A stretch of DNA of 40,000 nt from Nitrosarchaeum sp. (GCA_036984365.1 BQXB01000003.1:1-40000); one strand, 5' to 3'. Positions 3,363 through 40,000 are shown, counted from the first letter of the stretch. Translations and numbers: made by a program. Notes: generated by a model from the letters alone, not told the origin.

Positions 3363-5555
3363 ATGGCAAAATTCAAGTCAACGACTGAAGTTATGAAGAT
3401 AATCAAAAACAAAGAACAAATTCGCAACTTTAGTGTAATTGCTCACGTTGATCACGGCAAAACTACTATGAGTGATAGTTTATTGGCAGCATCTGGAATT
3501 ATTGCCCCATCTGCAGCTGGAAAAGCATTGGCAATGGATTTTGATAAAGAAGAACAAGAAAGAGGAATTACAATTTATCAAGCAAACGTAACGTTGCACT
3601 TTACAAAAAACAATAAAGAATATGTCATTAACATGATTGATACCCCTGGTCACGTAGATTTCAGTGGAAGGGTAATTCGCAGTCTTAGAGCAATTGACGG
3701 TGCAACTGTTGTATGTGATGCAGTTGAAGGGATTATGACTCAGACCGAAACTGTGACAAGAATGGCACTAGAAGAAAGAGTAAGGCCTGTTTTGTTTATC
3801 AATAAAGTTGATAGATTGATCAAAGAACTCCGTTTAACTCCCGAAAAAATGCAGGAAACACTTGCAGGTGTAGTGTCTAGCTTTAATCAACTAGTTGACA
3901 CTTATGCTGAACCTGAATACAAAGACAAATGGAAAGTATCGATTCAAGACGGTAGTGTCACATTTGGCTCTGCCAAAGACAAGTGGGCATTTAACATAGA
4001 TACTATGAAAGAAAAAGGAATTACATTCAAAGACGTTATTGATGCTTATAAAAATGAAAAAGTAGAAGACTTGGTAGCAAGAGTTCCCTTGGCTGACGCG
4101 GTACTTGGAATGGTAGTAAAACACGTTCCTCCTCCAAACGTTGCCCAAAAGTATAGAATTCCTCAAATTTGGAAGGGAGACCTTGATTCTGATATAGGAA
4201 AGGCACTCTTGGCATGCAGTGACGATGGACCAACAATTATGATGGTAGTCAATATGGTTTTAGATCCAGCGGCGGGGCCTGTTGCAATTGGTAGATTATT
4301 TTCTGGAACAATAAAGGACGGACAAACAGTTAACATCATTGATGCTAAAAGAGAAGGAAGAGTTCAGTCTGTAAACTTTTTCATGGGTAACCAAAGAGAA
4401 CAAGTTGGCGAATTAGGTGCAGGAAACATTCCTGCATTATTGGGATTAACTGAAGCAAGAGCGGGAAATACAATTGCATCTGTCAAAGGAATTCCAATGT
4501 TTGAAGGAGTCAAATATGTTTCAGAACCTGTCGTTCAAGTTGCAATAGAGCCAAAACATCCTAAAGATTTACCAAAACTTGTAGAGGTTCTCAAGCAATT
4601 GACAATTGAAGATCCTAACCTTGTAGTAAAAATCGACGAAGAATCTGGCGAAACACTCGTAGCTGGAATGGGTGTGTTGCACCTTGATGTAGCTACTCAT
4701 AGAATTCAAGATGCTAAAGTAGAAATTATTACATCTGAACCGCTTATCAATTACAGAGAAACTGTCAAAGGTACATGTGAGCCAGTCATGTCAAAATCTC
4801 CAAACAGACACAACAAGATTTTCATGAAAGTCGAACCATTAGAGCCAGCAATTGCGCACATGCTTAGAACCGGTGAAATCAGCGACATGAAAGACAAAAA
4901 GGTTGTAGCTGATCTTCTCAAAGGCGCTGGATGGGATACTGATACAATTAAGAGAATTATGAAACTAGACCCACGTGGAAACGTAATGATTAACGGAACA
5001 AAGGGTGTTCAGTTTATCCAGGAATCAACTGACTCTATTAACTCTGGATTTGAGGAAGTCATGAAAGAGGGGCCGCTCTGTAAAGAGCAGATGAGGGACT
5101 GTAAATTCATCTTTACTCACTTTGTACCTCATGAGGATACAGCGCACAGAGGCTTGTCTCAACTAGGACCTGCATCAAGGCGTGCCTGCATGGGCGCATT
5201 ACTTACTGCCGGAACTACGATTTTAGAGCCAATGCTTGCAATTGAGGTTAGAGTTCCAACTGATTTGGTAGGAAACGTAGCTACCGTACTTTCTGGTAAA
5301 CGTGGTAAGGTACTTGACATGCAGCAAAAAGGCGCTGCAAGTATTATTGTTGGCGAAATTCCAGCTTCTGAGACGTTTACCCTATCTGAAGCAATGAGAG
5401 GGCAAACAGCTGGACGTGCAACATGGAATACGTCATTTAAGGCATGGACTGAACTCCCAAAGTCTATTGCTGTTACCGCAATTGCGGAAATTAGAAAAAG
5501 AAAAGGTTTGGCACCAGTACCGCCTGGAATCGAAGAATATATCGACAGAGAGTAA
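3363..5555 (+). CDS. fusA: archaeal translation elongation factor 2 (aEF-2), translational GTPase
   Basis: G1 AHVDHGKTT, G3 DTPGHVDF and G4 NKVDR motifs, 730 aa, and an EF-2-type C-terminal half (HRGLSQLGPASRRA, RGQTAG). The last four codons plus the stop lie inside the repeated insertion target. Confidence 0.97.
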   Translation: MAKFKSTTEVMKIIKNKEQIRNFSVIAHVDHGKTTMSDSLLAASGIIAPSAAGKALAMDFDKEEQERGITIYQANVTLHFTKNNKEYVINMIDTPGHVDFSGRVIRSLRAIDGATVVCDAVEGIMTQTETVTRMALEERVRPVLFINKVDRLIKELRLTPEKMQETLAGVVSSFNQLVDTYAEPEYKDKWKVSIQDGSVTFGSAKDKWAFNIDTMKEKGITFKDVIDAYKNEKVEDLVARVPLADAVLGMVVKHVPPPNVAQKYRIPQIWKGDLDSDIGKALLACSDDGPTIMMVVNMVLDPAAGPVAIGRLFSGTIKDGQTVNIIDAKREGRVQSVNFFMGNQREQVGELGAGNIPALLGLTEARAGNTIASVKGIPMFEGVKYVSEPVVQVAIEPKHPKDLPKLVEVLKQLTIEDPNLVVKIDEESGETLVAGMGVLHLDVATHRIQDAKVEIITSEPLINYRETVKGTCEPVMSKSPNRHNKIFMKVEPLEPAIAHMLRTGEISDMKDKKVVADLLKGAGWDTDTIKRIMKLDPRGNVMINGTKGVQFIQESTDSINSGFEEVMKEGPLCKEQMRDCKFIFTHFVPHEDTAHRGLSQLGPASRRACMGALLTAGTTILEPMLAIEVRVPTDLVGNVATVLSGKRGKVLDMQQKGAASIIVGEIPASETFTLSEAMRGQTAGRATWNTSFKAWTELPKSIAVTAIAEIRKRKGLAPVPPGIEEYIDRE

Positions 5556-5558
5556 AAA
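5541..5558. repeat. Target copy a (native aEF-2 3' end): ATCGACAGAGAGTAAAAA
   Basis: The exact 18-mer recurs at 11037..11054 and 21940..21957, and with one mismatch at 26927..26944. It encodes I-D-R-E-stop. The true duplicated target may be only ATCGACAGAGAGT (13 nt) if the A5 belongs to the element termini. Confidence 0.9.
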
Positions 5559-5597
5559 TAGAATCCCCCCTTTGTAGGCACGATTTTGTGCTATGTT
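5559..5597. repeat. Casposon 1 left TIR: TAGAATCCCCCCTTTGTAGGCACGATTTTGTGCTATGTT
   Basis: Exact reverse complement of 10993..11031, checked base by base. Confidence 0.92.
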
Positions 5598-8564: not shown

Positions 8565-10318
8565 CCAATTACAATACTCTGTCAAAGTTATACACAAAGA
8601 AAAAACAAAACAGAGATCCTGCACAATCAGAACTAAGAGAAATTCATGCGCTGGATACAGAGACATGGAAGGGAGATATCTTTCTAATTGCTGATTCTAG
8701 TGGTCGATATATTGATAAAATTACGCCTGAAAACGTGATGGAATGGCTGTTTTTTAAAAAATACGAGGGTTCTTGGTGCTTTTTTTACAATTTATCATAT
8801 GATGCTGAAGTTATTTTGAAACTGCTTGGAAAAGAACTTGACAGATACAAAAGAACTGGCAAGCTTGAGTTTAAGTTTGGAAAATACAGAATTGTCTACT
8901 ATCCAGAAAAATGCCTCAAGATCACAGCAGGTCACCATTCTGTTATCTTTTATGACATTGCTCAATTTTACCATTCTGGTTTGGTTGATGCATATCAAAA
9001 CAATATTGGAAAACTACCAAAAGAATATCTGGAATTTAAAAAAATTAATGATCAATTCTCACCAACATACTATAGAAGAAATACAAATGCTGTAAGGAAT
9101 TATTGTATTTCAGATTGTAAATACACTAAACAACTGGCACAACACTGGATCAAACTATTTCATGAGGCGTTTTCATTTTATCCTGCAAAGTGGTTGTCCT
9201 CTGGATACTTGGCAGAAAAAGTTTTGATAAACAATAACATAGACATTCCAAAGTTTGATTCCATTCCATATGAGATTCAAGAGATGGCATATCGCAGTTA
9301 TTATGGTGGGAGATTTGAGATTCTAAAACGTGGATTTGTTGGTGAGGCATATCTTTATGACATCAATTCAGCATATCCATATGCAATAACTCAGATTCCA
9401 GATTTATCTGATGGGATATGGATTAAAAGAAAAACAATTCACAAAAACGCAAAAGTTGGATTCTTTAGGATCAGAGCAAAGATTCCAGACTGCAAGTATA
9501 TCCCACCATTTCCATTTAGAACAAAGCATGATATTGTTTTTCCCTCTGGAGAGTTTGAGACATATGTCACACTGCAAGAACTGCTAGTCTGTGAAAAGTC
9601 CTTTTACAAAATTCTTGAAGGATACCAGTTTATCCCAAACTCTGAAATTTATCCATATGCAGATTTTATTTCAAAACTATATCAGAAAAGACTGGAACTA
9701 AAACAGCAAAACAATCCGTTACAGTTGCCAATCAAAATAATTCTGAATTCTATTTATGGCAAGACTGGACAAAGTGTTAATCATAAAATAGGAAACATGT
9801 TCAATCCTGTAATTTTTGCATTTATCACTGGATTTGTGCGTGCCCAACTCTATAGTTTTGTTAAAAAATATGGTTTAGAAAAAGAAGTTGTGTTTTTTGC
9901 AACGGATTCCATATGTACCAGAAAGAAATTAGATATCAATTCTACTGTCTTAGGAGAGTTTTCCTTTGATGGAATGGATGATGATGTCTTTGTGTTGCAG
10001 AATGGTTTCTATCGATTTAATGGAAAATGGAAACAACGTGGATTAGGCAAGTTGGGAACTAGAGAAATAGAACATCTAGACACATTTGAAAAGAATGGGA
10101 GATTGTACTATAGTTTTGTTGTAAACAGAAACAACAGACTACGATCTTCTATTTTACAAAATAAAATTAGCGATATTGGAAAGATAAAACCAGAGACTAG
10201 GGAGTTTAATCTCAATGCAGACAGGAAGAGGTTTTGGTTGGGGAGGATTGAGAGTATGGATGATAAGATAATGAATGAGTCAATACCGATATGTTTTAAT
10301 CATTTTAAAATTAAATGA
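8543..10318 (+). CDS. polB: protein-primed family B DNA polymerase (pPolB)
   Basis: ExoI HALDTET, ExoII YNLSYDAEV, motif A DINSAYPYA, motif B KIILNSIYGKTGQ, motif C FFATDSI. Confidence 0.9.
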   Translation: MAESIPVTNYNTLSKLYTKKKQNRDPAQSELREIHALDTETWKGDIFLIADSSGRYIDKITPENVMEWLFFKKYEGSWCFFYNLSYDAEVILKLLGKELDRYKRTGKLEFKFGKYRIVYYPEKCLKITAGHHSVIFYDIAQFYHSGLVDAYQNNIGKLPKEYLEFKKINDQFSPTYYRRNTNAVRNYCISDCKYTKQLAQHWIKLFHEAFSFYPAKWLSSGYLAEKVLINNNIDIPKFDSIPYEIQEMAYRSYYGGRFEILKRGFVGEAYLYDINSAYPYAITQIPDLSDGIWIKRKTIHKNAKVGFFRIRAKIPDCKYIPPFPFRTKHDIVFPSGEFETYVTLQELLVCEKSFYKILEGYQFIPNSEIYPYADFISKLYQKRLELKQQNNPLQLPIKIILNSIYGKTGQSVNHKIGNMFNPVIFAFITGFVRAQLYSFVKKYGLEKEVVFFATDSICTRKKLDINSTVLGEFSFDGMDDDVFVLQNGFYRFNGKWKQRGLGKLGTREIEHLDTFEKNGRLYYSFVVNRNNRLRSSILQNKISDIGKIKPETREFNLNADRKRFWLGRIESMDDKIMNESIPICFNHFKIK

Positions 10319-10328
10319 TGTTTTAAAA

Positions 10329-10592
10329 TTAAGAATCAGGTTTTAACGTAATATAACCATGGCAATTTTTTGTGTAGATATCTTTACTCAAGCTTAAATT
10401 AAGCAATGTTACTTTTTCAAATGTAACTCCAAATTTATAGGGATTCATTAATTTTAATTTGTCAAAAGATCGTTTTATTTCTTCAAAATCTTCCTCTTTA
10501 ATATCAACAATATTGATTGAAATCGCTCCATTTTGAATATTCATATTAAGTGTACATTTTGATAGAAATGCAAAATCTCCTAATATTTCCAT
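10329..10592 (-). CDS. hypothetical protein (87 aa)
   Basis: ORF only. Confidence 0.35.
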   Translation of the reverse strand: MEILGDFAFLSKCTLNMNIQNGAISINIVDIKEEDFEEIKRSFDKLKLMNPYKFGVTFEKVTLLNLSLSKDIYTKNCHGYITLKPDS

Positions 10593-10609
10593 AGTTATAA
10601 TATTGAATT

Positions 10610-10999
10610 ATGTTTTATATATTAACACAGGATAAGAAAATTGAATTTATGGTATTGGAAAATTTGTCAGATCTTGGAATCGTAATAGAAATCTCAGGAT
10701 TTGTTTTATTGTTATTCTTTTGGAAAATTCCTACCTACACCGATTTATTTAGATGGCAGAAGTTTCTAATTTTCTTTAAGTTCTTTTTTGGATATGAAAA
10801 AATTGCTAAAATAATTTCAGAAAGTAAAATAATGGATGATGATGATACAATGACTCGATCTACAAGTCTTTCTGTCAGTTCTAATAATTCAATTCCGAGT
10901 GAATTCTTACGCTTTTGGAAAATTATGAAAAAGTTTTCTATTTTGATTGTAATCTTAGGATTAGTTTTACAATTATCCTGTTTGAATTTTCCAACATAG
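10610..10999 (+). CDS. hypothetical membrane protein (129 aa)
   Basis: Three hydrophobic segments (LGIVIEISGFVLLLFFW, FLIFFKFFFG, FSILIVILGLVLQL). The ORF ends inside the right TIR. Confidence 0.4.
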   Translation: MFYILTQDKKIEFMVLENLSDLGIVIEISGFVLLLFFWKIPTYTDLFRWQKFLIFFKFFFGYEKIAKIISESKIMDDDDTMTRSTSLSVSSNNSIPSEFLRFWKIMKKFSILIVILGLVLQLSCLNFPT

Positions 11000-11031
11000 C
11001 ACAAAATCGTGCCTACAAAGGGGGGATTCTA
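10993..11031. repeat. Casposon 1 right TIR
   Basis: AACATAGCACAAAATCGTGCCTACAAAGGGGGGATTCTA is the exact reverse complement of 5559..5597. Confidence 0.92.
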
Positions 11032-11036
11032 TTTTT

Positions 11037-11054
11037 ATCGACAGAGAGTAAAAA
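11037..11054. repeat. Target copy b: ATCGACAGAGAGTAAAAA, junction of casposon 1 and casposon 2
   Basis: Identical to 5541..5558. Preceded by T5, which is absent from the native aEF-2 sequence. Confidence 0.9.
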
Positions 11055-11094
11055 GGCAGTCCCCCCTCTTTACGCACAAAAACATGCGTCTGAC
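11055..11094. repeat. Casposon 2 left TIR: GGCAGTCCCCCCTCTTTACGCACAAAAACATGCGTCTGAC
   Basis: The reverse complement matches 21895..21934 at 38 of 40 positions. Confidence 0.9.
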
Positions 11095-11234
11095 TAAAAT
11101 TATAACGAAATAGGATTTGTTGGAGAATTGTTATAACGAAAGTATGAATTTGTGAATAGTTGAAAATAAATCCATCATTATGAAGAATATTGAAATATAG
11201 TTAAAAATACTTAGAATAAAAGATTAATTATTAA

Positions 11235-12491
11235 ATGACAGAATCTGAAATTTCTCTTGAAAAATTAATACTTTCAATTAAGAACATTGTTGATTTAACA
11301 ATGTTAAATCCTAAAAACTATGATAAATTCCAAATGTCTTCTATCATACACATATACGAAAATAATACTACAATTGCTTTTCCACATTCCACAGATTATT
11401 ATAAATTAGATGTCATTCAATATGTCAGAACTAAATCTAAAACTTGGAATTCCAGACTTTCAGATGAATATATTACAAATGAACTAAAAGAATTGGTATT
11501 AGAATTAAAAATAAATTCTGAAAAATACATGAATATTGGTAGAAATGTAAAAGATTGGATCCAAAAACTCAAAACATCATCAATAACAAATTATAGATTT
11601 ATCTTTCCCGTAAATAACGTCGATTATAGAAAAGACATTGAATTTGATAGAATTAAACTTAAGAAATTAAAATTGGATGTATTGCGTTCTTTTATACCGT
11701 TTCAAGATGCGCTTAATCCAAACGATATTTTTTCAACAGAATCTCAATTTGAAGATCTTGTTAAATTCAATCATACAGAAATTTTTGCTTTCATTGATGT
11801 GCAGGCAAAGGATGAAGATCAAGGTAAAATATTAGCAGAATCCTATCTCAAAAAATTAATTCATGCAATAAAATTATTTAATCCGCCATCAGGTATTTGT
11901 GAAAGAGTATTATATTTTCCTGAAACAAAATTTTCATATTTAGTAGTGGATATGGATACAAAAAATGTTTCATTTCCAATGAAAAATCTTCATCTTAATG
12001 CTCACGTTTGGCCCTATATTGATTATTGGAAACGAATTGAACCTTACTGGCAACAATTATCAAATTTTCTCTTTTCAGATGATCTTACTGAAATTCAATC
12101 ATTAATTCTTACAGCATTATATTGGTATGGTGAAGCAAGCAAAGAAACTGAAGATCAAATTTCAAAATTTCTCAAATATCTATATGGGTTAGAATCCTTG
12201 CTAATTTTTGATAATCAATACGGTAAAAGTGAAAAAATATCCCAAAGATTGGCCACAATTCAGAGTAAAGAAAATCCAGAAGATTTTGATTTTTATTACA
12301 ATCTGATGTTCGATTATTATAAATTTCGTAGCCAAATAGTACATTCTGGTAAATTGATTATTGACGATGAAGACGTTGCTACCACTCACACATGGCTACG
12401 TCATTTGATTTTTGATTATATTCTGTTCTCAAAAAAATATGACAATGTACAGGAATTATTCCAGAAAGAATTTTCAATTAAAATTATTTAA
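11235..12491 (+). CDS. HEPN-like protein (C-terminal Rx4H domain), casposon cargo
   Basis: The C-terminal region LTALYWYGEASKETEDQISKFLKYLYGLESLLI ... YYKFRSQIVHSG carries an R-x4-H motif in the helical context typical of HEPN nuclease families of the abortive-infection type. The N-terminal 280 aa are unassigned. Confidence 0.5.
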   Translation: MTESEISLEKLILSIKNIVDLTMLNPKNYDKFQMSSIIHIYENNTTIAFPHSTDYYKLDVIQYVRTKSKTWNSRLSDEYITNELKELVLELKINSEKYMNIGRNVKDWIQKLKTSSITNYRFIFPVNNVDYRKDIEFDRIKLKKLKLDVLRSFIPFQDALNPNDIFSTESQFEDLVKFNHTEIFAFIDVQAKDEDQGKILAESYLKKLIHAIKLFNPPSGICERVLYFPETKFSYLVVDMDTKNVSFPMKNLHLNAHVWPYIDYWKRIEPYWQQLSNFLFSDDLTEIQSLILTALYWYGEASKETEDQISKFLKYLYGLESLLIFDNQYGKSEKISQRLATIQSKENPEDFDFYYNLMFDYYKFRSQIVHSGKLIIDDEDVATTHTWLRHLIFDYILFSKKYDNVQELFQKEFSIKII

Positions 12492-12560: not shown

Positions 12561-13598
12561 TTATTGAAACTTTAATTCGAGTAATGATTGAATTTCAGTA
12601 GCTATTTTTTTTATTGTGTTTTTTCTTTTTAATAGTTCTATATCTACAAATTCTGATTTGTAGAATTCTCTTCCTTCAGATATTTTCTTAAAAAGACATT
12701 CGAATAACTGAAACCCTGAGCGTTGTTTCCATTGTTTTAAAATTGTATGATAATCATCATCACGTTGTATAGAATGTGCATACATCTTCTCATACAATTG
12801 TTCTGGAGAATCCAGATTTTCAAATAGTAATACTTCTTTAAATTCTTCCACAAAGACATGTAGTGGTTGCCAACTCATATCTGACAGTTTTATCATATCT
12901 TTCTCAAAAAATTCATGTAGTATGAAACAATCTTTGAAAATTTTTCCTAATTCGTGTTGTTTATAGACAAATTCTCGTTCTAATTGTCTTCCCATCATAT
13001 TCCATTTTTTGATCTCACCATCTAATTCTTTTAGACTATCATGGATGGATTTATCCATTTTAAATCTAGAAAAATCATCAATGTCTTCCCAAGGAGTTAC
13101 AAGTTTATTTGTCAAGAAAAAATTTCCATTTTGAATTTGTATTATTGAATTGTATATTGGTCGATATACATTTTGTAACAGCCACAATTTGTCTTCATTT
13201 TTTGTTCTTTTTTTTGGGATACTCTTTAGGTGTTCCCGTATCTGAGAACAAACATCTAAAAAATTGGCTCTTGTGAATTCTTCAACATCTTTACCATAAA
13301 TTAGAAATCCTCTTTTTGCATTTTGTTCAATCAAAGGTATTGTAGGCATAGAAATTCCTTGTGCATAGCCTAATTCTTGATTTACAGATGCTGATGAAAT
13401 AGAGTCGTTTGTAATAATTGCTATCAGATAATCAGAATCATCAAGTTGTTGTATAATTTTATTTGAAATTTCAATATCGTATTTCTTTACTCTTTGAGCG
13501 ATATATGCAGTTTCAATGTCTTCTGATTGCTCTAAGATTTCTTTTAATTTAGTTGCTAGATCTTCATCTGTGATTGGATAACTGATGAATATCTTCAT
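12561..13598 (-). CDS. TIR-like domain protein with an unknown C-terminal domain, casposon cargo
   Basis: N-terminus MKIFISYPITDEDLATKLKEIL...SDYLIAIITNDSISSASVNQELGYAQG fits the TIR / DUF1863-type pattern: FISY strand, acidic helix, S-x-x-V-x-x-E with a conserved Glu. Confidence 0.5.
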   Translation of the reverse strand: MKIFISYPITDEDLATKLKEILEQSEDIETAYIAQRVKKYDIEISNKIIQQLDDSDYLIAIITNDSISSASVNQELGYAQGISMPTIPLIEQNAKRGFLIYGKDVEEFTRANFLDVCSQIREHLKSIPKKRTKNEDKLWLLQNVYRPIYNSIIQIQNGNFFLTNKLVTPWEDIDDFSRFKMDKSIHDSLKELDGEIKKWNMMGRQLEREFVYKQHELGKIFKDCFILHEFFEKDMIKLSDMSWQPLHVFVEEFKEVLLFENLDSPEQLYEKMYAHSIQRDDDYHTILKQWKQRSGFQLFECLFKKISEGREFYKSEFVDIELLKRKNTIKKIATEIQSLLELKFQ

Positions 13599-21829: not shown

Positions 21830-21894
21830 AAAATAATTTTAGAATTTCTAATCTTTAAATAATTTCCAACAAACCAACTCACATCATTACGTTA

Positions 21895-21934
21895 GTCAGA
21901 CGCATGTTTTTGTTCCTAAAGAGGGGGGACTGCC
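21895..21934. repeat. Casposon 2 right TIR
   Basis: GTCAGACGCATGTTTTTGTTCCTAAAGAGGGGGGACTGCC matches the reverse complement of 11055..11094 at 38 of 40 positions. Confidence 0.9.
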
Positions 21935-21939
21935 TTTTT

Positions 21940-21957
21940 ATCGACAGAGAGTAAAAA
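21940..21957. repeat. Target copy c: ATCGACAGAGAGTAAAAA, junction of casposon 2 and element 3
   Basis: Identical to copies a and b. Preceded by T5. Confidence 0.9.
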
Positions 21958-26698: not shown

Positions 26699-26926
26699 TC
26701 TTCTTTTTAACATGAAAAGAATCTTTTTCTTATCGACACTGATAAAAAATGAATTTTTACTAAATATGATGCATTACAGATTTTTGGCTTAGAAGAGAGC
26801 CAAATTAGAATTTGAGCGTACTAATTTTAGTTATGACATAGTATGGACAAACTTACGCACAAAAAGTGGGAATGTACTATCGATTTATTACAAAAATGAT
26901 TTGAAATAGAGGAATATTTCCTTTTT

Positions 26927-26944
26927 ATCGACAGAGAATAAAAA
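26927..26944. repeat. Target copy d (distal, probably the ancestral aEF-2 3' end): ATCGACAGAGAATAAAAA
   Basis: 17 of 18 identical to copies a-c. The G-to-A difference at 26938 is synonymous (GAG to GAA, both Glu), so the copy still reads I-D-R-E-stop. Confidence 0.8.
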
Positions 26945-27014
26945 AGCGTCCATTTTTTCAAATGTATCAAATCCTCAGTAATTATTATATCCTATAACAC
27001 AAAAGTTTCGACAT

Positions 27015-31783: not shown

Positions 31784-32059
31784 TTTTTTTATAGAAATTA
31801 CCTGTCTCTTTAGGGATTTTATGTTGTAATGATTTTCTGTTCTTTTAACGTCAATTAATCAAATCAATCCTAAATATTTCTAACATCACAGTAAATTCTT
31901 GCCAAATTGCGGAAAACTACATTGCAATGATTAAAAAAAATAGCATGATTGAGATGGATGATCTATTCTTCGCAATTTGAAACAAATAATCTTACCTCTA
32001 TCATACTATACCGCAGACGAGATAAATTATTAAATTATAACATTCTAGAATGTATTGTT

Positions 32060-33997
32060 ATGAAGTTAGGTTTTGTATTTCTGTCAGTTGTACTGATGTC
32101 TTTTTCTAGCATATTGCAAGTTCATGCCGAATCTGGTTCCATTACTATACAAGAATGGGACATTCCGACTCTTGATTCTGCTCCACATGATATTGTTGTT
32201 GGCACAAATGGCACGATATGGTTTACTGAAATCAACACAAACAAGATTGGAATGTTCAATCCTGAAACTGAGGAATTCAACGAATATGAAATACCAACAC
32301 CGTCCTCACGACCTCATGGCCTTGTAACTGATGAATCAGGAAATGTATGGTTTACAGAAGTTGGCGCAGGAAAGATAGGAAAACTTGACATACAAACTAA
32401 AACCATAACCGAGTACCAAACTCCCACTCTAAATTCAGGGCCACACACTCCGATATTTTCTGATCAAAACACGTTGTGGTTTACAGAACAATCAGCATCT
32501 CAAATTGGCAAACTAAACATCAATACTGGTAATATTGAAGAATTCAAAACTATCACTCAATCTGCAAATCCTTATGGGATAATCACAGATGATGGCGGTA
32601 ATGCATGGTTTGCAGAGCTTAATGGACACCATGTAGGAAGAGTAGATGCAGTAACCGGAAACGTTACAGAATATCCTCTTCCAACTGAGAACAGCGGTCC
32701 ACGAAGAATCGCGATTGACAGTAATGGTATTATGTGGATAACGCAGTACAATGTAGGAAAGATAGCAAGTTTTGATCCAACTACAAATGAGATCATAGAG
32801 TATGATACCAGTTCTAAGTCTTCAGGGCCTTATGCAATTTGGGTAGACTCACATGACAATGTGTGGTTTAGTATGACTGGAATCTACAAGATGGGACATC
32901 TTGATCAGACCACCCAAAAAATTGAGGAGTATGATATGCCCTCTCCGCAAACTCACATCAAGTTTATTCACTCAGATGATAACGGCAACATCTGGTTTCC
33001 AAACTATAACAACAACAAGATTGGCGTGATAATGGTTGATACAATACCAAAGTCAACAGACATGCACGACCATCAAGATATGTCCGAATCTCAAGGCATT
33101 GCACACTTTCCACCCCCACTAAAGCAGATTCAAGATGGAGTCAAGCCTACCAGTGTGACTTGTACTGAAGGGCTGGAGCTAGTACTGAAATTCTCAAATG
33201 GTAGTCCTGCATGTATAAAGCCGACATCTACTGAGAAATTGATTGAACGCGGATGGGCAATGCATGTGCTGCCAGACTATAAGAGAAGTGAAAACAACAA
33301 CTCGGAGATATTTACAACTGGAGAATTCGACGTTCAGACAGAAAACGTAAGCTATTTTAAAAACTCCCAAGGATACCTGGCAAAACCTAGTGTCAGTGGA
33401 GAGTATCCTGGAATAATAATGATTCATGAATTCTGGGGATTAAATGACAACATAAAACAGATGGCTGAAAAATTAGCATCTCACGGGTATGTTGTCTTTG
33501 CAGTTGACTTGTATGACGGCAAAGTAGGAACAACAGCTGATGAGGCTCGACAACTGAGAAGCTCCTTTGAACAGTCTCAGTGGACAGAAAACATGAATAC
33601 TGCAGTGTCATATATCGAAGAGAAGTATTCTCCATCAAGTATGGGTTCAATAGGTTGGTGTTTTGGAGGAGGGCAGTCCCTTAATCTGGCACTAAACAAT
33701 GAAGACATGGATGCAACTGTCATCTATTATGGCCAGCTGGTAACAGACGCTGAAGAATTATCACAAATAAACTGGCCAGTATTGGGGATTTTTGCAGAGC
33801 TTGATTCAGGAATACCGCCTGCTACGGTCAACCAATTTGAATCTGCATTAAATAACGCTGGGATAGAAAACGACATCCATATTTATCCTGGAGTAAACCA
33901 CGCATTTGCAAATCCTTCTGGTGACAGATACGCACCAGATGAATCAAAGGACGCATGGCAAAAGACACTGGAATTTTTTAAAAATAACCTGAATTAA
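32060..33997 (+). CDS. secreted fusion: Vgb (streptogramin-lyase)-like beta-propeller repeats plus dienelactone hydrolase domain
   Basis: Start set at MKLGFVFLSVVLMSFSSILQVHA (signal peptide). At least 6 repeats of GP-H-x-hydrophobic-x4-G-x-hydrophobic-WFTE-x5-IGK. The C-terminal PGIIMIHEFWGLNDNIKQMAEKLASHGYVVFAVDLYDG...GWCFGG...H is the DLH pattern. The linker carries CIKPTSTEKLIERGWA. Confidence 0.75.
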   Translation: MKLGFVFLSVVLMSFSSILQVHAESGSITIQEWDIPTLDSAPHDIVVGTNGTIWFTEINTNKIGMFNPETEEFNEYEIPTPSSRPHGLVTDESGNVWFTEVGAGKIGKLDIQTKTITEYQTPTLNSGPHTPIFSDQNTLWFTEQSASQIGKLNINTGNIEEFKTITQSANPYGIITDDGGNAWFAELNGHHVGRVDAVTGNVTEYPLPTENSGPRRIAIDSNGIMWITQYNVGKIASFDPTTNEIIEYDTSSKSSGPYAIWVDSHDNVWFSMTGIYKMGHLDQTTQKIEEYDMPSPQTHIKFIHSDDNGNIWFPNYNNNKIGVIMVDTIPKSTDMHDHQDMSESQGIAHFPPPLKQIQDGVKPTSVTCTEGLELVLKFSNGSPACIKPTSTEKLIERGWAMHVLPDYKRSENNNSEIFTTGEFDVQTENVSYFKNSQGYLAKPSVSGEYPGIIMIHEFWGLNDNIKQMAEKLASHGYVVFAVDLYDGKVGTTADEARQLRSSFEQSQWTENMNTAVSYIEEKYSPSSMGSIGWCFGGGQSLNLALNNEDMDATVIYYGQLVTDAEELSQINWPVLGIFAELDSGIPPATVNQFESALNNAGIENDIHIYPGVNHAFANPSGDRYAPDESKDAWQKTLEFFKNNLN

Positions 33998-34348: not shown

Positions 34349-35011
34349 TTGTCAAACACTGAAGAGGTAAAAAAACAACGGTTTCAGTTTATTCATAAAC
34401 TTTGGCAAATCACTAGTGGAGATCAAAGTAAAAGAGTGCTAGTGCGGCAAATCGCAGAACCATTAAGATTAAATGAAAATGATGCTCGAATCATTGTTCA
34501 ATATCTAAGTGGAGAAGGATTATTAGAAATTACATCTCACGGTTTTAACGTTCCAAGCTATCTCGATGCTAGTCTGTATATCAAACATAAAGGCGTTATA
34601 GAAGTTGAACAAGCCATCTCAGAACCTGAATCTCCTACAACTCATTTTCCTGCAAGCGTTGTAAATTACATCAATGTTGGAACTATGACTAATTCTAACA
34701 TTGCTCAAGCAAGCTCAGATGCCAACCAAACAATCACGATAACCCCTGATATCAAACACAACATTTCAGAAATAATCGATATGCTAAAAGAATTTCTAAA
34801 TAAGCAGGAATTGCAACAAGAAAAAAGAGATGAGCTTAGATCCGATATTTCAACAATTGCAAGCCAACTTGATTCTCCAAAACCAAAAGCAGGAATACTA
34901 TCTGCAAGTCTTTCTTCTGCAAAAAGCATTTTAGAAAGTGCATCTACAATAGCTGTGACTGTTGCACCCGTAGTGGCACAGATTAGTAGCGTACTTGCTA
35001 TGATTAGATGA
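34349..35011 (+). CDS. hypothetical protein (220 aa)
   Basis: ORF with a TTG start. N-terminal part is possibly wHTH-like, and the C-terminal part is helical and Ser/Ala-rich. No firm motif. Confidence 0.4.
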   Translation: MSNTEEVKKQRFQFIHKLWQITSGDQSKRVLVRQIAEPLRLNENDARIIVQYLSGEGLLEITSHGFNVPSYLDASLYIKHKGVIEVEQAISEPESPTTHFPASVVNYINVGTMTNSNIAQASSDANQTITITPDIKHNISEIIDMLKEFLNKQELQQEKRDELRSDISTIASQLDSPKPKAGILSASLSSAKSILESASTIAVTVAPVVAQISSVLAMIR

Positions 35012-36528: not shown

Positions 36529-36963
36529 ATGGCAGGTTTGGATAATCCAATAACAAATTTCCAGTTTATAGTTAGTTTTGGAGGTGAAACTACTACTTTT
36601 CAAGAGGTAGTTCTTCCCGAATCTGAAATTGAAGTTATAGAGTACAGAGACGGCTCGGATGTTTCATCAGGTGTAAGAAAAATTCCTGGACTCATAAAAT
36701 ACTCAAATCTGATATTAAAACGTGGTCTGACAAAGTCTCCTGAACTATACGAATGGTTCAAGCAAACCAAACAGGGATCTCTTGAACGAAGAAACATCAC
36801 AATCAGTATTCTAAATAAAGAAAGAGAACCGTTTGCAACCTGGAAATTAACAAATTGTTGGCCTACAAAATATAGTGGTTCAACATTAAATGCCAAAGGA
36901 AATCAAATTGTAATAGAAACATTAGAAATTGTAGTTGAAGATGTTGACTTGGAACTAAAATAG
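36529..36963 (+). CDS. phage / contractile-injection-system tail-tube-like protein (T4 gp19 / Afp1-like family)
   Basis: FQFIVSFGG...FQEVVLPESEIEVIEYRDGSD...RKIPGLIKYSNLILKRGLTKSPELYEWF...WKLTNCWPTKYSGSTLNAKGNQIVIETLEIV matches the conserved phage tail region protein pattern. Confidence 0.7.
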   Translation: MAGLDNPITNFQFIVSFGGETTTFQEVVLPESEIEVIEYRDGSDVSSGVRKIPGLIKYSNLILKRGLTKSPELYEWFKQTKQGSLERRNITISILNKEREPFATWKLTNCWPTKYSGSTLNAKGNQIVIETLEIVVEDVDLELK

Positions 36964-36978
36964 ATTCTTTGTTTTTAA

Positions 36979-37413
36979 TCAGATAGTTTCTTTATCGTGA
37001 TAAATTTCTACAAAATCTTTGTATATTGACAAATCATGTTGTATTGATTTTTGAAATACTTCTTTTAATTCATTTCTGAAAAAAATAATTGTTTTTATCT
37101 GCATTGGCTGCTTACTTGCTAAATAAAATTGAAACAAATCTACAAACATTTTGATTTTCTTTCCCGGAGGTAAAAATTTCAATTGTTGAAAAATTCTAAG
37201 CGAAGAAATGTTTTTTGTTTTTTGCATTCCTGATATCTTCTTGTTGAATTTAACTAATGTATCATATGCTGGATCATTTCCTATGTTTTCAATTACAATG
37301 AAAAGCATACCGTCTTTGCATTCAAAGTCTACTATTACATTTGGATTTTTTCTTCGAAGCATTTTTTCTGATTTTAGGTTTTTTGTTTTGGTCGTGGATT
37401 TTTTGATTGTCAT
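36979..37413 (-). CDS. hypothetical protein (144 aa) downstream of the second tube-like gene
   Basis: ORF only. It starts 12 nt after the upstream gene's stop on the same strand. Confidence 0.4.
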   Translation of the reverse strand: MTIKKSTTKTKNLKSEKMLRRKNPNVIVDFECKDGMLFIVIENIGNDPAYDTLVKFNKKISGMQKTKNISSLRIFQQLKFLPPGKKIKMFVDLFQFYLASKQPMQIKTIIFFRNELKEVFQKSIQHDLSIYKDFVEIYHDKETI

Positions 37414-37425
37414 TTTGAAGAAAAA

Positions 37426-37932
37426 TTATAGTTCGGAAGGCTCTTTTACGGATAAATCCCTTTCCCACCCTTCATTTTCTAGAGTGATTCTCTCAATTGC
37501 AACTGCAAAAGAATTGGCATCAAGTTCTGGCAATGCAACATATTCTGAAATCCAGCATCTGCGAATTAGATATGAAATTACTAACATTCCTGCTTCGTTA
37601 AACATTTCAAGAACAACATCTCTGCGAAAATTTTTCAAGGACATTTCGGAGCCTTTATTTCCACTAATATTGAAAACTTGATTTGCCCAATTTTCAAATT
37701 CTGTATCATGAGTAATTCCACGCTCTAATGTAATAGGACCATATTTTGTAAATCCAGGCATTTTTTGTATGTTGTTGGAGTTTGCACCATCTCTATACTC
37801 TATAACTTCTGTGTTTCTTTTTAGTGGTGATATTTTTGAAATTCCTGCAACATACTTTCCATTCCACTTTATTCTAAATTTGAAGTTCTTGTAAGGGTCT
37901 GTTCTATGAGTATTTACTGTAAATGTTGGCAC
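37426..37932 (-). CDS. phage / contractile-injection-system tail-tube-like protein, second paralog
   Basis: RTDPYKNFKFRIKWNGKYVAGISKISPLKRNTEVIEYRDGANSNNIQKMPGFTKYGPITLERGITHDTEFENW...VAIERITLENEGWERD is the same family signature. Confidence 0.7.
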   Translation of the reverse strand: MPTFTVNTHRTDPYKNFKFRIKWNGKYVAGISKISPLKRNTEVIEYRDGANSNNIQKMPGFTKYGPITLERGITHDTEFENWANQVFNISGNKGSEMSLKNFRRDVVLEMFNEAGMLVISYLIRRCWISEYVALPELDANSFAVAIERITLENEGWERDLSVKEPSEL

Positions 37933-38067
37933 AATTCTATGTCATGCTTGAAGATAATATGTTTTGCTAAGATTTCTCTTGGATGCATTTGCAAATTTTT
38001 TATTATTTTTTTTCGATTGGTTTTAATCAATATGGCATTCTTCTAATTTTATCGATTACAATCATTT

Positions 38068-39438
38068 CTATTTTTTTGTAAAGTTAATTTGAAAGCCCTC
38101 TGGAGTAATACATGAAAAATAATTATGTGAGAAATTTTGAACTATCATTGCATAGTTCCAAGGCAATGCCCCATTTAGAACACCATTTATGCTAAGAACT
38201 TGAGTTTGTGAATCAAATACCCAATATCCTGTAATGAACATTCGTTGATTCAATGCTTGCTCAAATAAATCAATAGAAACTGTTCCGTCTGAATAAAATT
38301 CTACTTGTCCCATGCTGCCTGTAGAAGTATTTGATACGAAACTCCAATTCCCATCGGGAGTAAAGATATTGTTTTTTAGGCTATTTCCATTCTCAATATG
38401 TGAAAACAAATCTGATTTTAGCATGCTTTTCTCCCAAGTTTGATCTTCTTTGTCATGCCTTGATTCTTTTATTTCTCGAATTTTTTCTGATTGCTTTTTT
38501 GGCGATTTTTCTTTTGATCGATCTAAGAATTTTTGAAATTTTTCTTCCCATTTCTTGTCTAATTCCATCTTGTGCTTCTCAAGCTCTGTTCTCAAGTCAA
38601 TATTATTCATTCCTGTTGTATCAGTTGTTACAAAGTTAGGGTAGCTTGCTATTATGATATCTCCTATACCTTCCATTTTTCTTATTGGTTCTTGTTTTGG
38701 TCTTTTTTCTGTAGGGAGATTCATTAAAGAATCATACACATAATTAGAAATTGATTCTGGTGTGACATTGCCAAATTTGTCGACTGATTTACCTTCTGCA
38801 CCTTTTAATCCTTCTAGAAAATAGAATGTAAAAATACTATGCCCCTTTTCTTTTGAGCCATATGCTTCTTGATAACCAGAGCTTGCAGATAATAAACATC
38901 TCCCTTTGCCTGAACACTCAAGAATTTTTTCAGACTGTTTTTTTATTTGAGAGTTGGCGCTCTTTGCAATACTATCTTCGCCTCCCTTAGAAATTCTTGC
39001 TCTTCCACTAAAACAAGAATCTAATACAACAATGGATTTCTTTGATGAACTTCGTCCCACAATTGTAGTCAAATCTTCAAATGAGAGACCTCTCTTAATT
39101 GGAACATCAGGATCAATTTCTGTCGATGCAAGATACACATTTCCATCAGAATCAGGAACTCCATGCCCTGAATAATAAAACAAAAGTGTGTCATTAGTTT
39201 TAATATCATTATTGATGAAAAAATCCGTTACTGTATCCCTAATGTTTTGTGCGGAGACATTTCCTATTAGCTGATTTTCTCCATGCATTTCAAATCCAAG
39301 AGATTTGAGGGTTTTGTGTACTTCTTTACCATCTTTTTCACAAAAATCTAAATCATGCAGATCTTTATTTTGATAGCTTGCAACAGCTATGACTAAAGCC
39401 TTCTTTTGAGACATTTGATATGTGTCTTTATTAGACAA
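38068..39438 (-). CDS. caspase-like (peptidase C14) protease with an unknown C-terminal domain
   Basis: KKALVIAVASYQN..L....DGKEV...LKSLGF, followed by LFYYSGHG (catalytic His) and IVVLDSCFSG (catalytic Cys). Confidence 0.75.
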   Translation of the reverse strand: MSNKDTYQMSQKKALVIAVASYQNKDLHDLDFCEKDGKEVHKTLKSLGFEMHGENQLIGNVSAQNIRDTVTDFFINNDIKTNDTLLFYYSGHGVPDSDGNVYLASTEIDPDVPIKRGLSFEDLTTIVGRSSSKKSIVVLDSCFSGRARISKGGEDSIAKSANSQIKKQSEKILECSGKGRCLLSASSGYQEAYGSKEKGHSIFTFYFLEGLKGAEGKSVDKFGNVTPESISNYVYDSLMNLPTEKRPKQEPIRKMEGIGDIIIASYPNFVTTDTTGMNNIDLRTELEKHKMELDKKWEEKFQKFLDRSKEKSPKKQSEKIREIKESRHDKEDQTWEKSMLKSDLFSHIENGNSLKNNIFTPDGNWSFVSNTSTGSMGQVEFYSDGTVSIDLFEQALNQRMFITGYWVFDSQTQVLSINGVLNGALPWNYAMIVQNFSHNYFSCITPEGFQINFTKK

Positions 39439-39552
39439 TTCAAATTTTCTTTGTTCCAGTTTTCAATAAAGATTACGCGTATCACTAGTTTTAGAATTTT
39501 AAAGGATATACGCAGTAAAAATACATAAAAATCATCTGAAACTAGAACTGAT

Positions 39553-39822
39553 ATGAATACAAAACAAGATGTTCAATTATACTTTGCAGAGGAAGGAACA
39601 TCTTCAAGCACAGAAGATTACGTAAGCAAAGGAATAGATGATAAGTTTAAGGGATTTTCCACATCTATTGACAAAGTTATTGGTTGGTTTGATAAATATC
39701 AAGTACAATCAATTGAACTTTGGATTCAAGCTGCAGCAGAGACTGGAGGTATTCTCAAACTCCTAGTTAGTGCCAAGGGAGAAGGAGGAATGAAAATTAC
39801 TCTAGTTCCAAAAACACAATAA
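39553..39822 (+). CDS. trypco2-like small protein (89 aa), divergent from the caspase gene
   Basis: The C-terminal VQSIELWIQAAAETGGILKLLVSAKGEGGMKITLVPK resembles the trypco2 (trypsin-co-occurring domain 2) pattern: E-hydrophobic-E-F-x-V..., then a Gly-rich stretch, then a final K-hydrophobic-T-L-x-hydrophobic-x-P. Confidence 0.45.
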   Translation: MNTKQDVQLYFAEEGTSSSTEDYVSKGIDDKFKGFSTSIDKVIGWFDKYQVQSIELWIQAAAETGGILKLLVSAKGEGGMKITLVPKTQ

Positions 39823-40000
39823 CTTTCTATTATTTTTTTGATCTTAGTTTTTTTTCTTGTAGGGATAACTTATTCTGAAAAATAATGATTATGCATAACT
39901 TGAAACAAAGAATTTGTAATTTTAAAATAATGAAATTACAAGAGATCATAACAATTATGTTTACACGATGACATGATTATTAGAATTTTTTCTACAAATG

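Follow-up and report, generated by a model that had tools for sequence, protein, structure and literature searches.

We analysed a 40,000-nucleotide stretch of the genome of Nitrosarchaeum sp., a marine ammonia-oxidising archaeon (GCA_036984365.1, BQXB01000003.1:1-40000; the whole stretch is called the window below) and concentrated on five genes between positions 36529 and 39822, among them two genes for tail-tube proteins and one for a caspase-like protease. We consider it probable that these genes make up two unrelated and independently distributed modules, which are neighbours in a variable part of the Nitrosarchaeum genome. The first module (36529-37932) is a sheath-less tube cassette formed by the tubes C and A and a protein B, that is, a new form of a known family in an unexplained context. 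The second module (38068-39822) is, judged by analogy, a caspase system of two genes that follows the plan of the EACC1-caspase and Pepco-protease pairs; the caspase and its small neighbour, protein E, add a new variant, from archaea, to a kind of system that was characterised only recently.

All five open reading frames (ORFs) that the original prediction had listed, including those of 144 and 89 amino acids (aa), were found at their coordinates. Tube A (36529-36963, plus strand, 144 aa) is a short, divergent tail-tube paralog of the PF06841 family and is convergent with protein B (36979-37413, minus strand, 144 aa), a β-sandwich protein specific to Nitrososphaerota with a variable, Lys-rich and disordered N-terminal tail. 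Tube C (37426-37932, minus strand, 168 aa, GTG start), a PF06841 tail tube of the first-tube lineage of extracellular contractile injection systems (eCIS), lies 12 bp upstream of B on the same strand, and C and B form a probable operon. Tubes A and C are thus convergent around B; the NCBI annotation describes both as 'phage tail protein' only. The C14 caspase-like peptidase (38068-39438, minus strand, 456 aa) has an N-terminal protease, a K/E-rich linker and a β-rich C-terminal domain of ∼100 aa. Divergent from it is protein E (39553-39822, plus strand, 89 aa), a small caspase-associated protein of an uncatalogued family.

We distinguish two juxtaposed modules because the tube genes and the caspase-E genes occur separately in other genomes (related loci are denoted by L and a number). 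The caspase-E pair was found without tubes in L091, L092/L105, L098, L104 and L113-L115, and tube cassettes were found without a caspase in L003, L004, L089, L090, L120 and L121. Among 25 loci recovered with a sequence pattern for E (described below) only L116, from a close Nitrosarchaeum relative, also has a tube cassette. In L116 an AsnC-like gene lies between C and the caspase, and the flanking genes differ from those of the window. Only close relatives of the window's genome have the two modules next to each other, and this arrangement need not have a functional meaning. The neighbourhood comparison of caspase and tube genes that the original prediction had suggested shows two sets recurring separately, and its proposal of a protease-based conflict system that has recruited tubes does not agree with this outcome. 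In such an integrated system the caspase would act on or with the tubes, and E, caspase, C, B and A would belong together. The five genes are indeed contiguous in the window, L001, L002 and L116, and caspase, C and B share one strand with a gap of 135 bp between caspase and C. Nevertheless we regard a single system as very improbable: the separate occurrence of the gene sets already goes far towards refuting it, and both the AsnC-like insertion in L116 and an AT-rich, TATA-like stretch upstream of tube C speak against it.

The tail-tube assignment of A and C, originally made on the basis of a signature motif, is well supported. The motif EVIEYRDG...PG..KY..I.L.RG is common to both proteins. 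Against PF06841 (cutoff 28.2 bits) tube A scored 142.9 bits (E=6.7e-42) and tube C 133.3 bits (E=6.4e-39), and against TIGR02241 (cutoff 62.4) both reached 136 bits (E=7e-40 for A, 6e-40 for C). Both also match the solved eCIS tubes AlgoCIS 7adz, Anabaena 7b5h, Pvc1 and Afp1; among solved structures, tube A comes closest to the AlgoCIS tube 7adz (E=3e-31) and the Anabaena CIS tube 7b5h. The two proteins are distant paralogs with 29% identity over 153 aa. Orthologs of tube A in L003 and L004 showed 65-75% identity, and A-type tubes adjoin B homologs in L089 and L090. For tube C the orthologs from ammonia-oxidising archaea (AOA) are 69-93% identical, and tubes from many bacterial phyla and some archaea are 55-67% identical.

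The composition of the cassette varies between lineages. We observed C, B and A together in the window, L116, L003 and L004, C and B in L121 and C alone in L120, while B and A occur on the same strand in L089 and convergently in L090. A comparison of the window with L003 and L004 shows that C, B and A are the only conserved genes and that the flanks are wholly different. Near the cassette of L003 (13304-18817) we noticed an unusual cluster of protease inhibitors, with a Kunitz_BPTI-domain protein and a 712-aa serpin-domain protein, together with an amoA-like gene.

Protein B adjoins a tube gene in every context that we read (the window, L116, L003, L004, L121, L089 and L090). It has 109 homolog clusters, and the named ones belong only to Nitrosarchaeum, Nitrosopumilus or Nitrososphaerota. 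There was no match to a Pfam, NCBIfam or PADLOC family, and we found no published work on the protein; its match to phrog_11802 (E=1e-6) leads to a family to which no function is assigned. A structure of this 144-aa protein had been suggested as a check, and the AlphaFold2 (AF2) model (mean predicted local distance difference test score, pLDDT, 87) gives a seven-strand β-sandwich with a C-terminal helix, residues 1-24 being disordered. Foldseek returned only generic Ig-like folds from the PDB, with template modelling scores (TM) ≤0.46, and hhalign showed no relation of B to tube or CIS_tube families (probability <1%). On these two results we rejected the idea that B is a divergent tube or CIS_tube protein. 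The length of the N-terminal tail differs between homologs: in L003 (10519-11109) it contains about seven KPKTRT/KPKTRA repeats, and in L090 (10001-10714) B carries an N-terminal extension of ∼100 aa and is adjoined by a Snf7 (CdvB-like) gene. A viral origin of A or B was also considered and rejected, as a pattern search and tblastn found no relatives of either in IMG/VR and the phrog family is the one without assigned function.

The original prediction had seen no sheath, baseplate, spike or AAA+ gene in the window and had proposed the edge of an archaeal eCIS as one explanation for the tubes. We built profile hidden Markov models (HMMs) from 59 canonical eCIS loci, covering sheath, Pvc16_N, AAA, CIS_tube and four other cluster families, and scanned the window as well as L001-L004, L078, L089-L092, L120 and L121; the AOA loci were read to 10 kb either side. 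The tube ORFs were the only matches. In the window and these loci we obtained no match to the sheath (PF04984/PF17482), to the terminator DUF4255/Pvc16_N, to an Afp15-like AAA+ ATPase or to the gpD-like cluster c21, and the families gp25, Baseplate_J, VgrG/gpD and PAAR did not occur among the called genes of the AOA loci or the scanned window ORFs; the Pfam assignments of the genes in these loci include no sheath either. For the 40-kb window, the HMMs together with Pfam scans of 20 further ORFs gave no sheath, baseplate, terminator or ATPase, in line with the first impression. L001 and L002 are identical to the window here and run 2.3 kb past its end, where they contain an astacin-type metallopeptidase and an acetyltransferase only, so that no canonical tail or eCIS module follows within that distance. 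Orthologs of tube C in AOA lie on contigs of 630 kb (L003), 2.0 Mb (L004), 1.98 Mb (L120, circular) and 524 kb (L121), and L089 and L090 were reached via distant B homologs; none of these six loci has an eCIS gene except the tubes within the range read. On the sequence past the window end, the related AOA tube loci and the HMM scans we rejected the edge of an eCIS as an explanation.

To place the two tubes we compared them with the inner tubes of known eCIS (Afp1/Pvc1/Alg1/All3324). The likeness is clear at the family level, since A and C are PF06841/TIGR02241 members that match the solved structures, and C resembles the first tube of the locus type sheath - tube - tube - Pvc16_N - AAA at 55-67% identity. 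There are three differences. The AOA tubes have no sheath, baseplate, spike, terminator or ATPase genes nearby; their scores against the NCBIfam CIS1 and CIS5 equivalogs (65.4 and 79.6 bits for A, 46.7 and 59.1 bits for C) are far below the cutoffs of 220 and 260; and they are paired with a β-sandwich protein that is not known from eCIS loci.

For tube C the origin can be described more closely. A scan with one genome per species yielded 80 tube C loci with 60-66% identity, which span many bacterial phyla, Bathyarchaeia, Methanothrix and Nitrososphaeraceae. Clustering of the neighbouring ORFs showed that in 59 of 84 loci the gene immediately upstream of the C-type tube encodes a sheath (PF04984/PF17482); as the sample is skewed towards relatives of the AOA query, the fractions with and without sheath are not estimates of prevalence. 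The canonical order is sheath, C-type tube, then a second tube paralog, Pvc16_N, an AAA ATPase, CIS_tube (PF19266) and others. Because the sheath is directly upstream of its homologs in 59/84 loci, C can be placed in the first-tube lineage of a widespread eCIS type, and its sequence indicates that it derives from that gene lineage. The mean identity of canonical tubes was 82% among each other, 76% between sheath-less and canonical tubes and 61% between the AOA C and canonical tubes, and in a neighbour-joining tree most of the sheath-less copies branch near the base. The drift of the AOA C sequence fits a constraint that is altered yet still strong.

About 20 of the loci, from bacteria and Bathyarchaeia, have no sheath, and many of them consist of a bare tube paired with a CIS_tube-like protein with an FNPE motif. 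Such pairs of a sheath-less tube and a PF19266 CIS_tube-like protein were seen in L005, L007, L009, L011, L012, L015, L026, L036 and L039, in most cases around 10001-11500. Their hosts include Korobacteraceae, Thiohalophilus, Xenophilus, other bacteria and Bathyarchaeia. Within 10 kb of these pairs there were no other eCIS genes, and we found no published description of them. They resemble the AOA arrangement in having a C-type tube without sheath and a small partner gene directly next to it. The partner follows the tube, except in L039 where the order is reversed. The partner in these pairs is itself a tube-fold protein with the FNPE motif, whereas the AOA partner is the unrelated β-sandwich B; furthermore, a second tube (A) is often present in AOA, unlike in the pairs.

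A further alternative is a split contractile injection system, in which sheath, baseplate and spike are encoded elsewhere in the genome and the cassette is a detached part of an eCIS or cytoplasmic CIS. There are published examples of split eCIS loci (PMC6899500), the soil thaumarchaeon Nitrososphaera evergladensis is reported to have a sheath homolog (PMC9230969), and the identity of tube C to sheath-adjacent tubes is still as high as given above. Against this, no non-tube eCIS gene appears within 10 kb in the six AOA loci or in the 40-kb window, and the eCIS surveys report one archaeal phylum only, with Thaumarchaeota and Nitroso- taxa unmentioned in their text (PMC8213781; PMC6899500). A variable cassette (C alone, C+B, B+A) would also be odd for parts of a fixed machine, and the AOA C is further from the canonical tubes than these are from one another. 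We therefore regard a split system as unlikely. Publications on sheath-less tube cassettes or on tail proteins in Nitrosopumilus or AOA were not found.

The rates of substitution show that the genes A, B and C are all maintained under purifying selection. Across three AOA lineages the ratio of nonsynonymous to synonymous substitution rates (dN/dS) was 0.07-0.18 for tube C, 0.08-0.16 for tube A and 0.22-0.25 for B, with dS of at least 0.9. This bears on the notion that the cassette is the remnant of a prophage tail or eCIS in decay and no longer has a function. Only the tube genes of a multi-gene machine are left here, and mobile elements (casposons) are present in the genome region, as would be expected of a remnant. 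However, a remnant is contradicted because the three genes have dN/dS values of 0.07-0.25 at saturating dS. The ORFs are moreover intact, the cassette is conserved across 69-93% protein identity, and B, with its 109 clusters, is a dedicated and lineage-specific partner. We give this explanation hardly any credence.

What the cassette does can be sketched from the known behaviour of the fold. A and C may have kept the ability to assemble into hexameric rings similar to those of Hcp or into short stacked tubes, and B may be a bound partner or cargo of these rings, perhaps held via its basic tail. No contraction would then be needed for the cassette to act, be it as a ring chaperone, a carrier or a small structural assembly. 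As a specific mechanism, A and C forming rings or tubes with B as bound partner is our best guess, though we give it clearly less than an even chance. A comparable case is offered by the orphan Hcp proteins and Hcp-effector pairs of type VI secretion systems (T6SS), where a tube-fold ring protein is likewise encoded away from the machine and beside a small partner. Hcp rings bind and stabilise small substrates in their lumen, and an orphan Hcp still depends on a T6SS encoded elsewhere. In contrast, no such machine is evident for the AOA tubes, A and C belong to the PF06841 family and not to the Hcp family, and binding of B is an assumption of the model. In broader terms we envisage, as one possible reading, an autonomous sheath-less machine: tubes would have been domesticated in AOA and, in parallel, as the tube and CIS_tube-like pairs of bacteria and Bathyarchaeia, and in each case rings or short tubes would act with a dedicated partner and without recourse to a contractile injection apparatus. 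Candidates for the purpose of the cassette are a carrier, a structural element and an anti-viral decoy.

A role of the cassette in virus-host conflict is plausible. As an anti-viral decoy, the host tubes and B would co-assemble with or cap the tail tubes of contractile-tailed viruses, or bait a sensor, and the cassette would be a defence module of its own. The variable gene neighbourhoods, the patchy distribution and composition, the apparent horizontal acquisition of C from a bacterial eCIS lineage and the setting in the window, where the cassette is flanked by a caspase-effector pair and a gene similar to the PADLOC family PDC-M14B is 1.5 kb away, would all be in keeping with a decoy. On the other hand, PADLOC gave no match for A, B or C, housekeeping genes predominate around the cassettes of L003, L120 and L121, no viral homologs of A or B that could be targets were found in IMG/VR, and an experimental precedent for a tube decoy was not found in the literature searched. 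We thus judge a decoy to be improbable, slightly more so than a split injection system.

We now turn to the second module. The caspase matched PF00656 with 69 bits (E=6e-19, cutoff 21.4), and the catalytic residues His92 (SGHG) and Cys142 (DSC) are invariant in seven homologs, which bears out the proposed C14 caspase-like protease with an intact His/Cys dyad. Its best NCBIfam match was NF047832 ('caspase, EACC1-associated type', E=7e-32, 110.6 bits), and PADLOC also reported a caspase (E=1.5e-10). For the C-terminal 190 aa we obtained no Pfam match. This part contains a conserved, β-rich domain of ∼100 aa that is common to the window, L091, L092 and L103 and is replaced by other domains in L106, L107 and L110. 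The caspase of L107 (2345-4243) has a long C-terminal extension in which pentapeptide-like repeats can be made out by eye, along with a hydrophobic stretch and one more region of repeats.

Protein E shows an N-terminal strand, an acidic linker with an invariant S25-K26, a helix and a C-terminal three-strand region with the consensus WIxxxxETGGxxKLxVSAKGEGGxKxTLxPK. Its AF2 model has a pLDDT of 80 with a poorly ordered linker. There are 12 close homologs in Nitrosarchaeum-like AOA, and a profile of 11 of them detected 190 representative proteins at E≤1e-3. The original prediction had called this protein trypco2-like. E itself had no Pfam, NCBIfam or PADLOC match at E≤1 and no match to Pepco, Trypco1 or Trypco2 at E≤10. 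Faint matches to Pepco (PF24393) were seen in three of the 11 close homologs (best E 0.018, below the gathering score), and among 148 members of the family one matched Pepco (E 0.0043) and two matched Trypco1 (0.0081), again below the gathering scores. Trypco2 was matched neither by E nor by the 11 close homologs or the 148 members, and no NCBIfam family was matched either. Searches of the PDB gave no profile match to its sequences and no fold match with Foldseek. The identification of E as trypco2 was rejected on the scans of single sequences, homologs and family against Pfam and NCBIfam, which returned only the marginal Pepco and Trypco1 matches, and on the empty PDB searches; the label is unsupported because the family membership of E is not established. 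The same sequences gave no EACC1 match in Pfam or NCBIfam, where the presence of an EACC1 model is unconfirmed.

The suggested role of E as a partner of a protease fared better. A degenerate DNA pattern for the motif SAKGEGGxKxTL retrieved 25 metagenome loci. In 16 of these a strong caspase match lies 40-551 bp from E, the caspase being either divergent or 3' of E on the same strand. Two further loci have a caspase and a short E ORF, and in three GC-rich loci a SGHG/NACYS caspase that shares the C-terminal domain of the window protein is encoded divergently, so that E and a caspase are adjacent in ∼21 of the 25 loci overall. In L091, L092 and L093 the E homologs (65% identity) are divergent from a caspase of 474-476 aa and stand in unrelated neighbourhoods without tubes. 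In L108 (1437-2333) an E homolog lies beside a SIR2_2-domain protein with no caspase seen, and in L103 (73-852) and L109 (2022-2945) a PD-(D/E)XK nuclease lies beside the pair. The SIR2_2 and PD-(D/E)XK neighbours fit a defence setting.

The simplest reading of E, given how it is built and which genes surround it, is that of a substrate or effector of the caspase. The EACC1 system combines a constant small component with a caspase whose C-terminus is variable (Kaur et al. 2020, PMC7159879). In our loci the C-terminus of the caspase varies and E is constant, and the design is therefore the same. The comparison (PMC7159879; bioRxiv 10.1101/2025.11.14.688446) extends to several other features: the protease domain is N-terminal, the best NCBIfam match of the caspase is the EACC1-associated type, in several loci the small gene precedes the caspase gene on its 5' side, with both on one strand, and E has a conserved Gly/Ala-rich segment. 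The differences are that E has no detectable match to any catalogued family, that the caspase scores below the curated cutoff, that the AOA genes are divergent and that the system is archaeal, whereas the published ones are mainly actinobacterial. The Pepco proteins (with Trypco1 and Trypco2), which form β-barrel pores upon activation by a protease, are similar to E in that a small (∼90-120 aa) non-enzymatic protein is encoded beside a protease, in the order of a helix followed by β-hairpins with a conserved C-terminus (hydrophobic-x-T-L-x-P-K), and in the faint matches of a few homologs. They differ in that these matches are far below the gathering scores (best E 0.004-0.018), that E has almost no C-terminal tail to remove and that its model has no PDB fold match. 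Taken together, the two-gene EACC1-caspase architecture fits the pair at least as well as trypco2.

By analogy with the work of Evans et al. 2025 (bioRxiv 10.1101/2025.11.14.688446) we propose that a trigger would be sensed through the C-terminal domain of the caspase. The caspase would then cleave E, with the invariant S25-K26 linker and the TLxPK tail as candidate sites, and cleavage would free a β-rich fragment that oligomerises and damages the membrane. We see the chances for and against such a trigger-dependent release of a membrane-active fragment as roughly balanced.

Several points weigh against our interpretation of the two modules. Both occur together in the Nitrosarchaeum relatives L001, L002 and L116. 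For the tubes, the ring-plus-partner mechanism draws on gene adjacency and on the known behaviour of the fold; the scans cover 10 kb either side, and a sheath or baseplate locus could lie elsewhere, as in a split eCIS; and the 55-67% identity of C to sheath-associated tubes could mean that it still meets a sheath. For the caspase-E pair, the cleavage and toxicity of E are predictions by analogy, neither a significant match to the profiles (EACC1, Pepco, Trypco2) nor a similar PDB fold was obtained for E, and the 110.6 bits of the caspase are under the NF047832 cutoff of 140.

Other features of the window concern the surroundings of the modules. The caspase-E pair is framed almost exactly by the two copies (37994-38024 and 39821-39851, 77% identical) of an AT-rich direct repeat of 31 nt. 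These copies might be the edges of a two-gene module that was inserted, though they are probably due to chance or to terminator-like T-runs, and we did not use them as evidence. The PDC-M14B candidate defence family of PADLOC is matched by the C-terminal half (E=9e-10) of a 220-aa protein at 34349-35011 (plus strand), 1.5 kb upstream of tube A, for which no Pfam family was found. A 682-aa protein at 31949-33997 (plus strand) consists of a Vgb_lyase/SGL-type β-propeller fused to a dienelactone-hydrolase / PETase-like α/β-hydrolase domain. As the 40-kb window contains no tRNA genes, the idea of a tRNA-flanked island was dropped.

Further upstream, between 5540 and 21980, two elements with Cas1 and a protein-primed PolB (PF03175) lie in tandem right after the aEF-2 gene (3363-5555). 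Element 1 has perfect terminal inverted repeats of 45 nt (5553-5597 / 10993-11037) and element 2, which encodes a TIR-domain protein (12561-13598), has repeats of 85 nt with 80% identity (11049-11133 / 21856-21940). The motif TATCGACAGAGAGTAAAAA occurs at 5540, 11036 and 21939, and near-copies of it are located at 26727-26752 (73% to the 26-nt repeat reference) and 26922-26947 (92%). The elements look like tandem casposons at the 3' end of aEF-2, which we take to be the site of thaumarchaeal family-1 casposons.

As a rule, tail tubes are seen solely as components of contractile machines. In this case purifying selection maintains them together with a lineage-specific partner, in ammonia-oxidising archaea, organisms with small genomes in which the eCIS surveys report no contractile system. 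If the cassette works without a sheath, it would represent an unrecognised second career of the tube fold, in a tractable system of two or three genes. Should the tube machine indeed be autonomous, phage tails would have given rise to a functional class of a new kind, which might serve as a carrier of cargo, as a structural element or as a device against viruses. The caspase-E pair extends the protease-activated effector systems of the EACC1/Pepco type into the archaea, by way of a small-protein family that profile libraries have missed.

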